Source of the DNA: Vectrevirus DIJ06P1
Strand: one strand, 5' to 3'
Sequence record: OZ035817.1
DNA length: 44,766 nt
Both the position numbers and the translations under genes were made by a program. Below the pieces are notes generated by a model. It was not told the DNA's origin. It made no database searches and saw nothing but the letters and a program-made list of their open reading frames with translations. Every line of letters begins with the position of its first letter. Positions within the stretch are counted from its first letter, which is position 1. This document shows, in pieces, positions 25,532-28,649 of this stretch.

Positions 25532-25926
25532 AATCATCGGAGGTAGCAGCTTATAAGAGGGAATTGCTAGAGAAGCAAGGGTGGAAGTGCCCACTATGTG
25601 GCGGCAGTCTCAAGGCTGTTACTCCTATAAACCGTGTACTTGACCATGACCATGAGACAGGATTCTGCCGTGCTGTTGTATGCCGAGGCTGCAATGGTGC
25701 AGAAGGAAAGATTAAGGGTGTTATCTCTGGTTACGGTAAGGCTGGTAACAACCGTTACTTCCAGCTTCAATGGTTAGAGCGACTATATGAATACTGGAAG
25801 TTACATAGTACGCCTCAGACAGATAAGTTATATCACAAACATCAAACGGAGGCAGAGAAGCGCGAGGCTAAGAACCGTAAGGTACGCCTTGCTTATGCAA
25901 GAAAGAAGGAGGTTAAAGTTGGGTAA
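25516..25926 (+). CDS. endonuclease VII-like junction-resolving nuclease
   Basis: CPLCG...LDHDHETG...CRGCNGAEG matches the Zn-binding and H-N-H-like core of T4 endonuclease VII as I recall it. Confidence 0.75.
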   Translation: MVSKLKSSEVAAYKRELLEKQGWKCPLCGGSLKAVTPINRVLDHDHETGFCRAVVCRGCNGAEGKIKGVISGYGKAGNNRYFQLQWLERLYEYWKLHSTPQTDKLYHKHQTEAEKREAKNRKVRLAYARKKEVKVG

Positions 25927-26926
25927 GCTTCGCAGCTTGTACAAAGACTCCGAGGTACTTGATGCAATCGAGCAAGCTACCGACGAGAAAGGTAATGTTA
26001 ATTACAATGAGATGGCACGTGTATTATCGTGTCACCCTGTGGGTAAGAAGATTACCCGCCAGTTGGCTCGATACTGGCATGGTCAATTCAAGAAGACCAA
26101 GAAGAATGGTGATTATTACCAGACCCTTCTGCAAGAAGATAAGCGTATCAAAGAAGAGCGTAAGCTCAGGACTCCTGACCGCTACGAGGATTTGGCTATT
26201 GTTCCATTGCCTGACTCGCCTCATCGAAGTGTACTGGTGATACCTGATACTCATGCACCTTATGAGCACCCAGATACCCTAGAGTTCCTTGCAGCCGTGG
26301 CAGCACGTTACCGTCCAGACACAGTGGTACACCTAGGAGATGAGGCAGACAAACATGCCTTGTCATTCCACGATTCGGACCCAAATCTGGATAGTGCTGG
26401 CATGGAGTTGGAGAAGGCTCGTATCTTCATGCACAAATTGCACAAGATGTTCCCTGTGATGCGCCTGTGTCACTCCAACCACGGCTCTATGCACTTCCGT
26501 AAGGCAAGCGCCAAGGGCATCCCTGTGCAATACCTGCGCACCTACCGTGAAGTTTTCTTCCCGCAGGGAGGTGGCGACCAGTGGGATTGGCAGCATACGC
26601 ACGTCCTTGAGTTGCCGAATGGTGAACAAGTGGCATTCAAGCATCAACCTGCTGGCTCTGTCCTAGCAGATGCAGCGCATGAGCGTATGAACCTGGTGTG
26701 TGGTCACTTGCACGGTAAGATGTCTGTGGAGTACGCACGTAATACACATGAACAGTATTGGGCTGTGCAGGGTGGCTGCTTAATTGATGAGTCATCCCGT
26801 GCATTTGCCTATGGGCGTGAGTCTAAATACAAGCCAGCATTAGGTTGTGTGGTTATTCTGGAAGGTGTGCCTCATATTGTCCCGATGCAAACCAATAGCG
26901 ACAACCGTTGGATTGGCAAGATTTAG
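25919..26926 (+). CDS. calcineurin-like metallophosphoesterase
   Basis: Probable TTG start 6 nt after AAGGAGG; motifs IPDTHAP, HLGDEAD, SNHG, CGHLHG match the phosphoesterase metal-binding series. The ORF-track start at 25787 is an upstream extension. Confidence 0.65.
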   Translation: MGKLRSLYKDSEVLDAIEQATDEKGNVNYNEMARVLSCHPVGKKITRQLARYWHGQFKKTKKNGDYYQTLLQEDKRIKEERKLRTPDRYEDLAIVPLPDSPHRSVLVIPDTHAPYEHPDTLEFLAAVAARYRPDTVVHLGDEADKHALSFHDSDPNLDSAGMELEKARIFMHKLHKMFPVMRLCHSNHGSMHFRKASAKGIPVQYLRTYREVFFPQGGGDQWDWQHTHVLELPNGEQVAFKHQPAGSVLADAAHERMNLVCGHLHGKMSVEYARNTHEQYWAVQGGCLIDESSRAFAYGRESKYKPALGCVVILEGVPHIVPMQTNSDNRWIGKI

Positions 26927-26945
26927 TTGACACTATAGAACAAAG
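26921..26945 (+). promoter_or_regulatory. SP6-type phage RNAP promoter
   Basis: ATTTAGTTGACACTATAGAACAAAGGG; closest to the canonical SP6 sequence; overlaps the upstream stop codon. Confidence 0.7.
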
Positions 26946-27026
26946 GGCTAGGTAAGACTTTATCGGCTGGCGTATCCAAATGATATTGCACTAGCCCTTG
27001 ATTGTATAGTGAATGGAGGATTCAAT

Positions 27027-27530
27027 ATGTCACACTATGAATGTAAGAAGTGTCATAAGCGTTATGATTACTGTACTTGTGGTCAAGAGAAAACATCTTT
27101 TAAAGTTGGAGACAAGGTATTTCGTAATGAAAAAGATTCTATTCCTTGGAATCAATACTGCAAAGAAGCTGGTATTGACCCTGATAGCCCTGTAACCATA
27201 GATGATATTGATGGCATTAACTTGTGCTTTCGTGAGGTGAGGGGTACAGGTTGGGATTCCAAAAAATTCAAACTTGCATCTGATAAGTTAGACAACAATA
27301 TGGTAACTCAGCCTAAGCACTACGAGTTCTTTGATGGTGTAGAGGCAATCACTATCATTGCCCGCAGTATGACTGAAAAGCAATTCGCTGGGTACTGCAT
27401 GGGTAATGCCCTTAAGTATCGCCTGCGTGCAGGTAAGAAGTTCAATACTGAAGAAGACTTGAAGAAGGCAGACTATTATAAAGAGTTATTCCAGAAGCAT
27501 CGTCACGAATGTATTGATGAGGATATTTAA
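27027..27530 (+). CDS. Zn-ribbon protein with DUF3310-like C-terminal domain
   Basis: ATG at 27027 after GGAGG; N-terminal CKKCHKRYDYCTC; C-terminal PKHYEF...GNALKYRLRAGKK...EDLKKADYY pattern; AT-rich gene. Confidence 0.5.
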   Translation: MSHYECKKCHKRYDYCTCGQEKTSFKVGDKVFRNEKDSIPWNQYCKEAGIDPDSPVTIDDIDGINLCFREVRGTGWDSKKFKLASDKLDNNMVTQPKHYEFFDGVEAITIIARSMTEKQFAGYCMGNALKYRLRAGKKFNTEEDLKKADYYKELFQKHRHECIDEDI

Positions 27531-27531
27531 T

Positions 27532-27705
27532 ATGGAAGGTAAACTGTATAGAGGGTACTTCGGTAACTTATATAAAGTAAGCTCTCGCGGTTTTGTATTG
27601 ACCTCTGATGATGAAGGTGCAATGTGGCACATAAGTGCATATGGTTCTAACTTAGCACACTTTAAAGAGGCAATAGTCAAAGGTGTGATGAAGGAGGTGA
27701 AATGA
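27532..27705 (+). CDS. hypothetical small protein
   Basis: ATG at 27532; 57 aa; stop overlaps the ligase start. Confidence 0.35.
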   Translation: MEGKLYRGYFGNLYKVSSRGFVLTSDDEGAMWHISAYGSNLAHFKEAIVKGVMKEVK

Positions 27706-28649
27706 ACATCTTCCAATTCCTAGGTCTTCCAGAAGACCACCGCAATCATCCATTCATGCTGGTGAAGCATCGCGGTGAAGTTCCTGAGAAGAAACTTACT
27801 TTTCCATGTTATGCACAGGTGAAACGAGATGGAATATTCAGTGCTGTTGTGGTGCGCAATGATGGTGCTGTTGCCGTCTTTGGTCGTACTGGTAAGAAGC
27901 TCGCAAATGTTGAAGCCTTGGAAAAGACATTTAGTGTATTTCCTGTCGGGTTGTATCTTGGTGAGTTGCAATCTATGGCTGTTGATGTTTATCTTGAAGC
28001 TCTGTCAGGAGTGGTAAACCCTAATCGTACAGAGCCACTTAACTTCATAGGCCAGCAGATTAAAGACAACCTGTATATCGACTTCTTCGATATGTTAACT
28101 ATTAAGGCATTCCATGATGGATTCACTGATGTTTCTTATCTCAAACGTTACGATGCTTTACATCGTCGTATCGGCACTCATCTTAGCGGGTGCAACGCTA
28201 TCCTTCCTATCACTCCTTGCCATAATGAGCGAGAAGTTGAAGCGTTTGCGCAAGAGCAAATAGATGCAGGACGTGAGGGTGCCGTATTCAAACTGGACTG
28301 CGATTATGAAGCAGGACACAAAGGTTATCGTCAGACTAAAGAAGTCCGTAAGGTAACTTATGACCTTACTTGTATTGGCTTTGAAGAAGGTAAAGGTAAA
28401 TACAAAGGTAAGGTAGCTAACCTCATTTTCAAGTGGAAAGGGGGCAAGACAATCAAAGCTATGCTCGGTAAAGGGTGGACTCATGCAGATGCAGAACAGA
28501 TGTTCCACGACATTAAACATGGTGGACGATTGAATGTCATTGGTAAAATCTTTGAAGTCAAAGGTCTTCAGGATTCAAGCAAGGGCAACATTCGTCTGCC
28601 CAAAGCGGGAGAATTAAGACATGACAAAGATGAACCAGATTTCTTTTGA
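27702..28649 (+). CDS. ATP-dependent DNA ligase
   Basis: ATG after GAAGGAGG; adenylation motif KRDG in AQVKRDGIFSAVV; size about 315 aa. Confidence 0.8.
   Translation: MNIFQFLGLPEDHRNHPFMLVKHRGEVPEKKLTFPCYAQVKRDGIFSAVVVRNDGAVAVFGRTGKKLANVEALEKTFSVFPVGLYLGELQSMAVDVYLEALSGVVNPNRTEPLNFIGQQIKDNLYIDFFDMLTIKAFHDGFTDVSYLKRYDALHRRIGTHLSGCNAILPITPCHNEREVEAFAQEQIDAGREGAVFKLDCDYEAGHKGYRQTKEVRKVTYDLTCIGFEEGKGKYKGKVANLIFKWKGGKTIKAMLGKGWTHADAEQMFHDIKHGGRLNVIGKIFEVKGLQDSSKGNIRLPKAGELRHDKDEPDFF

Follow-up and report, generated by a model that had tools for sequence, protein, structure and literature searches.

Gene 1.7 of phage T7 encodes a protein, gp1.7, which is described in secondary accounts as a nucleotide kinase converting dTMP and dGMP to their diphosphates (PMC11897194, citing Tran et al. 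2012; PMC10700055; PMC9712115). The T7 protein (NP_041967) comprises 196 aa, and its gene, located in the DNA-metabolism region and read by the phage polymerase, follows the ligase gene at a distance of about 600 nt. It is also said to act independently of metal, to have an active shorter form and to form oligomers, properties that are not used as evidence here. A second DUF3310-bearing early phage protein, SaV of lactococcal phages (InterPro 'SaV-like'), is described in the sections of PMC8306868 devoted to it. SaV is a distant relative of the protein analysed here, belongs to phages of Gram-positive hosts and, according to the same sections (PMC8306868), is known for its toxicity and its interaction with AbiV; no report of a kinase activity of SaV was found in the literature looked at.

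The closest counterparts are found among the Vectrevirus phages. Gene 23 of K1-5 (YP_654124) and its ULINTec6 equivalent (UCR91838) represent the same gene as the one analysed here: all are 504 nt long and share their promoter and flanking genes, and the DNA identity to the annotated Vectrevirus kinase genes is 96-99.9%. 'Nucleotide kinase' is already the GenBank name of the product in K1-5, K1E, mutPK1A2 and ULINTec6, and one GenBank record reads 'nucleotide kinase Gp1.7, phosphorylates dGMP to dGDP and dTMP to dTDP'.

Transcription unit and its gp1.7-type kinase homologue

In this Vectrevirus phage, the 26921 promoter, the DUF3310 gene and a small ORF belong to a single transcription unit of middle genes for DNA metabolism (Table 1). 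The window, that is, the whole stretch of 44,766 bases that was analysed, has its genes laid out on one strand with a GC skew that is positive throughout, a layout that fits a complete K1-5/K1E-like (SP6-type) phage genome. K1-5/K1E-like coliphages belong to the SP6 group (Autographiviridae, Molineuxvirinae). Over 851 bases surrounding the locus, the identity is 99.9% with Vectrevirus LI10P5 and 99.8% with Escherichia phage ULINTec6, and a megablast search with the whole locus returned 89 phage records, nearly all of them from K1-5/K1E-like coliphages.

Table 1. Features of the locus, with positions in the window.
Feature	Position	Strand	Basis or remark
SP6/K1-5-type phage RNA polymerase promoter, ATTTAGTTGACACTATAGAAC	26921-26941	+	agrees with the promoter consensus of the window
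5'-terminal stem-loop of the predicted transcript, GGGCTAGG...CTAGCCC	26943-26999	+	RNA fold
Shine-Dalgarno sequence GGAGGA	27015-27020	+	6 nt 5' of ATG 27027; read from the sequence
167-aa DUF3310 protein gene, homologue of T7 gene 1.7 and K1-5 gene 23	27027-27530	+	Pfam, PHROG, BLASTP
Cys4 knuckle, residues 6-18, C-x2-C-x6-C-x-C	27042-27080	+	optional family module
Small beta-barrel, residues 24-85, FKVGDKVxR...W...C...V...W...F	27096-27281	+	model
DUF3310 core, three-helix unit, residues 93-161	27303-27509	+	Pfam and model
Accessory 57-aa gene (phrog_15259)	27532-27705	+	PHROG match, homologues, dN/dS, AF2
Asp-box (BNR) motif, S25-D-D27-E-G29-A-M-W32	27604-27627	+	compared with consensus S-x-D-x-G-x-T-W
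ATP-dependent DNA ligase gene	27702-28649	+	Pfam DNA_ligase_A_M and DNA_ligase_OB_2; phrog_114

The promoter, already placed at 26921 by the initial annotation, was borne out by the search: within the window the promoter consensus is ATTTACnGGACACTATAGAAG, of the SP6 type, and the site is one of 11 on the plus strand with the GACACTATAG core. A looser promoter pattern gave 18 matches, compared with 6.0 expected. By analogy with SP6, transcription would start at G 26938. The stem-loop that follows has a predicted folding energy of -27.1 kcal/mol (z -2.2 relative to shuffled sequences) and could act as an mRNA stabilisation or processing site; the Rfam scan of 26800-27800, which includes it, gave no match. 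Scans of 26947-27705 for sigma-70 promoters and terminators found nothing beyond chance level. Upstream, the neighbouring genes encode an exonuclease, an endonuclease VII and a phosphoesterase. Downstream, the transcription unit continues with the ligase gene.

For the main gene, the start was assigned to ATG 27027 rather than GTG 27009 because of the GGAGGA sequence 6 nt upstream, and this start agrees with the one annotated in K1-5 and ULINTec6. The encoded protein begins with MSHYECKKCHKRYDYCTCG, which carries C6, C9, C16 and C18, and contains GNALKYRLRAGKKFNTEEDLKKADYY. DUF3310 had originally been proposed from the C-terminal sequence pattern, and the profile search substantiated it: PF11753 (DUF3310/SaV-like) matches residues 93-152 over profile positions 1-59 of 60 with 88.4 bits (E 3.1e-25), against a curated gathering threshold of 24 bits. 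Additionally, the protein matches phrog_1689 'nucleotide kinase' (E 3.8e-44), and the viral structure-library matches to its model carry the labels nucleotide kinase, DUF3310 or SaV-like; the NCBIfam search gave no meaningful match.

With T7 gp1.7, BLASTP yielded 64% identity and 77% positives over 73 C-terminal aa (E 9e-31). PF11753 occurs in both proteins, matching T7 gp1.7 at residues 122-184, while BLASTP produced no alignment to T7 residues 1-121, outside the C-terminal core. Both genes are phage-polymerase-transcribed members of a DNA-metabolism region near a ligase gene, but the order differs, since the kinase gene lies upstream of the ligase gene here. On these sequence grounds, 27027-27530 is a known and already annotated homologue of the T7 gp1.7-type nucleotide kinase, to which the activity, measured for the T7 protein only, would extend from T7. 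The gene is among those conserved across the T7/SP6 supergroup. The function had been called unknown in the initial annotation, a statement that does not hold, as near-identical phage records already say nucleotide kinase; the link to T7 gp1.7 had been missed.

Modular architecture of the 167-aa protein

An AlphaFold (AF2) model of the 167-aa protein was obtained from an alignment of 91 sequences, with a mean pLDDT of 78. In this model, the first ~20 residues with the four cysteines are poorly defined (pLDDT ~65), and they are followed by the small barrel with one helix (residues ~24-85, pLDDT 77-88), a disordered linker (residues 87-97) and the DUF3310 core, whose helices span residues 107-114, 117-137 and 141-161 (pLDDT 81-93).

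C6, C9, C16 and C18 are kept in 6 of the 6 aligned homologues that have the N-terminal module. In a regular-expression scan of 120 homologues, 37 had C-x2-C...[C/H]-x-C inside their first 40 residues. Other homologues, P0117 for example, carry the Cys pattern directly before the DUF3310 core, and some proteins have the knuckle behind the barrel. T7 gp1.7 shares the N-terminal C-x2-C...[C/H]-x-C motif in the form CIAC...HTC (C-x2-C...H-x-C). The region had been described as an N-terminal CxxC...CxC ribbon; the four-Cys motif stands, being kept wherever the module occurs. With no more than 6 residues between the two Cys pairs, the C-x2-C-x6-C-x-C spacing appears closer to that of a short knuckle than to a canonical ribbon. 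By its motif, the Cys4 knuckle is a putative zinc-binding site.

As modelled, the barrel appears SH3/KOW-like, and it is hypervariable among relatives: in 53 cluster representatives with 95% identity or more to this protein over the C-terminal 75 residues, the median identity of the barrel region is 22%. Sequence searches of the PDB (single sequence and profile) gave weak SH3-like matches at E ~0.2, which are not significant. The barrel-profile matches in PDB sequences consisted only of the TEV-site/Strep-tag in PhnK constructs and were discarded as an artefact. By motif count, the 120 homologues contain 0, 1 or 2 copies of the barrel, and by alignment P0078 contains 3. Judging from these patterns, the Cys-knuckle and barrel modules combine freely among the 120 homologues, where they are absent, present, repeated or reordered. 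The two are read as exchangeable accessory modules outside the presumed catalytic core, probably serving in partner binding.

The DUF3310 core is the sole part in common with T7 gp1.7. In T7, the region before the core consists of two Cys clusters without a barrel and does not align to the knuckle and barrel of the present protein. Residues invariant in the 91 relatives include, among others, P96, Y99, E106, R113, G122, G126, K130, Y131, R134, G136, K138, K147, Y151 and C162. The core is presumed to be the catalytic and oligomerisation unit, and the invariant basic residues R113, K130, R134, K138 and K147 are candidates for phosphate binding. No DUF3310 protein matched a PDB chain by sequence, either with the single sequence or with the profile. 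A kinship between DUF3310 and DUF5664 (dGTP_diPhyd_N) was also considered, as a DUF5664 gene stands in KL01 and Reminis at the position that the DUF3310 gene has here, yet profile comparison showed no similarity, and the idea was rejected.

The 57-aa gene and its Asp-box

The small ORF starts at ATG 27532, one base past the kinase stop, with its own Shine-Dalgarno sequence (GAGGA) 8 nt upstream, and its TGA overlaps the ligase start (ATGA). The protein matches phrog_15259, a family without functional or structural annotation, from end to end (E 7.7e-37), and has 21 cluster-level homologues with 70-95% identity, almost all of them 57 aa long and most of them encoded on contigs of ~44 kb. The ORF was found in 48 phage records by tblastn, compared with 89 records for the whole locus by megablast. 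K1-5 lacks it: a clean 171-bp difference joins the ATG of the ORF to the second codon of the ligase, so that the ligase ATG takes its place. Because roughly half of the related phage records do not contain the gene, it is considered dispensable.

The dN/dS values relative to three relatives are 0.56-0.76, calculated on few sites, and the other forward frames across the ORF are full of stops. An antisense ORF of 76 aa (27486-27716) was rejected as a candidate, since stop codons interrupt its frame in K1E, mutPK1A2 and PSK8. The 57-aa ORF, listed at the outset as a small ORF, is accepted here as a real, conserved but weakly constrained accessory gene on the strength of phrog_15259, the homologue clusters and the dN/dS values. 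Equivalence to T7 gene 1.8, which has the corresponding position in T7, was also examined, and no similarity was found.

In this phage, as in Kayfunavirus CY1, which is T7-like, the gene comes directly after the DUF3310 gene. A DUF5664 (dGTP_diPhyd_N) gene precedes it and the ligase gene follows it in Klebsiella phage KL01 and phage Reminis, whereas Shigella phage Buco (Bucovirus) has it flanked by the primase and helicase genes. Thus, 4 of the 5 genomic contexts examined place it beside nucleotide-metabolism or DNA-joining genes, Bucovirus being the fifth. More distant homologues of the small ORF were observed on short metagenome contigs, where the neighbours are families without known function.

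The AF2 model of the 57-aa protein (pLDDT 93.9, pTM 0.78) consists of a four-stranded meander with an Asp-box hairpin, followed by a helix and a short final strand. The Asp-box lies between strands 22-25 and 33-34; S25, D27, G29 and W32 of the consensus are present, with M in the place of T. The consensus is exact in the homologues P0133-P0135, and the motif is degenerate in the most distant of the small homologues. Like the Asp-box (BNR) blades of sialidases, sortilin/Vps10 and YCF48 (PMC2716378), the 57-aa protein has an S-x-D-x-G-x-(T)-W hairpin, located between its third and fourth strands. Unlike the Asp-box propellers, the 57-aa protein contains a single copy, capped by a helix and a fifth strand, and its monomer model is confident alone.

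With a profile of the 57-aa family, 228 matches were obtained from a set of 1.84 billion representative proteins. Among the 150 matches listed, about a dozen were free-standing proteins of 53-65 residues, and most of the others listed were large proteins, each matched 5-12 times over profile positions ~11-40. All seven large matches that were checked (7/7) carry BNR/Asp-box propeller domains, assigned to PSII_BNR/YCF48, Sortilin-Vps10 or BNR. Furthermore, single sialidase and sortilin blades superpose on the 57-aa model over 42-46 residues at 2.2-3.0 A, with 10-19% identity. The Pfam BNR-type models gave no match to the 57-aa protein even at E up to 1; the Pfam BNR model covers 12 residues and needs several repeats to reach 27 bits, a threshold that a single copy cannot pass.

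Taken as modelled, these features indicate that the 57-aa protein resembles one Asp-box (BNR) blade plus a helix. A propeller is closed by several blades, whereas the 57-aa chain is one blade-sized unit. This Asp-box reading of phrog_15259 is new, being absent from the annotated records found. How a free-standing single blade would work is a matter of speculation: it might assemble into a homo-oligomeric ring or add an extra blade to a partner, working with the adjacent nucleotide-metabolism or DNA-joining enzymes, and we regard this proposal as rather improbable.

Exchange at the locus and its functional reading

Comparison with relatives revealed a mosaic structure. DNA identity to K1E and mutPK1A2 is 33-66% across 26930-27330 and about 90-95% in the flanks, and this low-identity stretch spans the 5'UTR and the N-terminal half of the kinase gene. 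In these two phages the stem-loop UTR is replaced (61% identity), and the divergent N-terminal allele gives a 179-aa protein. PSK8 diverges across 26930-27130. K1-5 is ~99% identical in the N-terminal half and 89-93% identical in the DUF3310 core, up to the missing small ORF. The identity breakpoints coincide with the domain linker. Overall, phages that are otherwise 90-99% identical differ by replacement or loss of two parts, the 5'UTR with the N-terminal half and the small ORF. Judged from these alignments, horizontal exchange at the locus is real, and it is visible by comparison with relatives, not by composition.

The locus is best read, with a probability of roughly 65%, as a DNA-metabolism transcript driven from 26921 with a gp1.7-type dNMP kinase as its first gene, recycling nucleotides of host DNA, and with the N-terminal modules as accessory parts. 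The phage-polymerase promoter at 26921 would drive the transcript, and its first product would be the 167-aa kinase homologue. The DUF3310 core would then act as a deoxynucleoside-monophosphate kinase, converting dTMP to dTDP and dGMP to dGDP as in T7, and would speed the recycling of nucleotides freed from host DNA by the nucleases encoded upstream. The recycled nucleotides may feed phage DNA synthesis. The 57-aa gene comes next and is translationally adjacent to the DNA ligase gene. Several points count against the kinase reading. Only the C-terminal 73 of the 167 residues align with the characterised T7 enzyme, and T7 gene 1.7 is non-essential in the laboratory (PMC9712115). Other DUF3310 proteins have different phenotypes, as reported in the sections on SaV (PMC8306868) and on mycobacteriophage proteins (PMC10700055).

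These phenotypes could instead point to host takeover or toxicity as the main role, in which the core would act on a host target, the variable barrel would direct it to partners, and kinase activity would be secondary or absent. According to the sections of PMC8306868 on SaV (citing Haaber et al.), the lactococcal protein is toxic in L. lactis and E. coli, and the DUF3310 proteins of mycobacteriophages Waterfoul and Hammy were among the most cytotoxic gene products tested (PMC10700055). A hypervariable N-terminal module beside a near-invariant core is also what would be expected of a targeting domain. We nevertheless consider a primary takeover role unlikely: the core shares 64% identity with a protein whose kinase activity has been demonstrated biochemically (PMC11897194), the gene sits amid DNA-metabolism genes, and gp1.7 expressed alone is not listed as growth-inhibiting in the Avs5 study, where p16 is the sole named exception (PMC11897194). 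A conflict with host immunity may also have shaped the locus, with the swapping of the N-terminal part and the small ORF serving as escape from, or interference with, defence sensors. T7 gp1.7 activates the Avs5 NADase filament (PMC11897194), SaV determines AbiV sensitivity in the account of it given in PMC8306868, the mosaic boundaries are sharp (identity to K1E/mutPK1A2 falls from about 92% to 33-66% across 26930-27330), and close relatives differ in whether they carry the small ORF. The immune-escape idea is weakened because the variable part differs from the part common to both sensed proteins, the conserved core being the better sensor target, and mosaic early and middle genes are frequent in T7/SP6-like phages without any link to immunity. 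It is slightly less probable than a takeover role.

The exchange itself had been proposed in the initial annotation, which took the region for a distinctly AT-rich island without known function and saw in its composition a sign of horizontal acquisition. The exchange was upheld by the comparison with relatives; composition as its marker was not. The GC content of 26947-27705 is indeed below the mean of same-size segments of the window (0.394 vs 0.449, sd 0.032), at the 4.6th percentile, but the z value is only -1.73, and the lowest same-size segment elsewhere reaches 0.364, so that the composition remains inside the genome's own range. Among 44 crude plus-strand ORF calls, 27027-27530 has the 8th-lowest GC, with 7 calls lower, and its GC3 (0.387) is at the gene mean (0.393). 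In the codon-usage check, its synonymous codon choice was the most genome-typical of 39 genes (likelihood under rest-of-genome usage), with no foreign signal, and the gene belongs to the conserved T7/SP6 supergroup set. The impression of an AT-rich island arises mainly because a GC-rich gene lies just upstream, the metallophosphoesterase gene (GC 0.49, GC3 0.52), which is among the GC-richest. A compositional island is therefore very improbable, and the gp1.7-type kinase transcript is the reading we retain.

For the main gene, little changes, as it is a known gp1.7-type kinase homologue in a well-sampled phage genus. The added value is modest and consists of a modular, mosaic kinase from a family with no PDB sequence match, together with an optional, blade-like 57-aa neighbour. 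The near-invariant core of ~70 residues, combined with freely exchanged modules, suggests a minimal construct for studying this unusual kinase, and the same construct would be a tool for finding the surface recognised by Avs5- or AbiV-type defences. The 57-aa protein, apparently a stand-alone Asp-box blade, could be a natural example for studies of how beta-propellers arise from single blades.

The barrel domain in kinase homologues

The putative SH3/KOW-like barrel (residues 24-85 of the 167-aa DUF3310 protein) was found to vary in copy number. In some relatives, such as the kinase homologues P0078 (290 aa) and P0081 (226 aa), the FKVGDxVxR barrel is repeated two or three times in tandem, followed by a single DUF3310 core. 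The barrel thus behaves like a module that can be amplified. When the barrel-domain profile (A5) was compared with PDB sequences, matches to PhnK constructs corresponded to a TEV site and Strep-tags (...ENLYFQG...WSHPQFEK) and were rejected as spurious, illustrating that tag sequences can generate false PDB sequence matches. Additionally, the kinase homologue of Escherichia phage AAPEc6 is annotated as two proteins of 87 and 92 aa (A0A1P8BK44 and A0A1P8BK45 in the viral structure library); this points to a frameshift, to an error in the sequence or to a gene that is truly split.

Sequences flanking the kinase gene

RNA folding against shuffled sequences revealed a strong stem-loop in the 5'UTR, beginning 5 nt downstream of the transcription start predicted for the 26921 promoter. 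An Rfam scan of this element returned no match; it might represent an mRNA-stabilising or RNase III-type element. In K1E and mutPK1A2, the entire UTR, including the stem-loop, is exchanged for other sequence. The metallophosphoesterase gene upstream is among the most GC-rich genes of the window, and its true start is probably located downstream of the mechanical call, since annotated homologues comprise 335 aa (1008 nt).

Within the DNA ligase gene, a second small mosaic patch was observed, with 72-76% DNA identity to K1-5, K1E and mutPK1A2, while the remainder of the gene shares 94-99% with the same phages. PSK8 is still 92% identical to the window across the patch.

Positions in OZ035817.1 (window) or in segments of relatives' records
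Feature	Sequence	Position	Detail
Metallophosphoesterase ORF, mechanical call	window	25787-26926	379 aa
Metallophosphoesterase ATG, probable start	window	near 25919	
5'UTR stem-loop	window	26943-26999	-27 kcal/mol, z -2.2
Mosaic patch in ligase gene	window	27830-28030	~200 nt
57-aa ORF	K1E, L004	1501-1671	91% identity
DUF5664/dGTP_diPhyd_N gene	Klebsiella phage KL01, L007	1101-1511	
DUF5664/dGTP_diPhyd_N gene	phage Reminis, L012	1080-1520	

Gene content of the slot in relatives

The 57-aa accessory ORF is present in phage K1E and is unannotated in its reference record (NC_007637), where a gap separates genes 23 and 24. In KL01 and Reminis, a DUF5664/dGTP_diPhyd_N gene occupies the position of the DUF3310 gene; on one side lies a gene for a phosphatase or for a polynucleotide kinase-phosphatase, on the other the same small ORF and the ligase gene. 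Profile comparison detected no sequence similarity between DUF5664 and DUF3310. The presence of DUF5664 in place of DUF3310 in these two phages may constitute a functional substitution.
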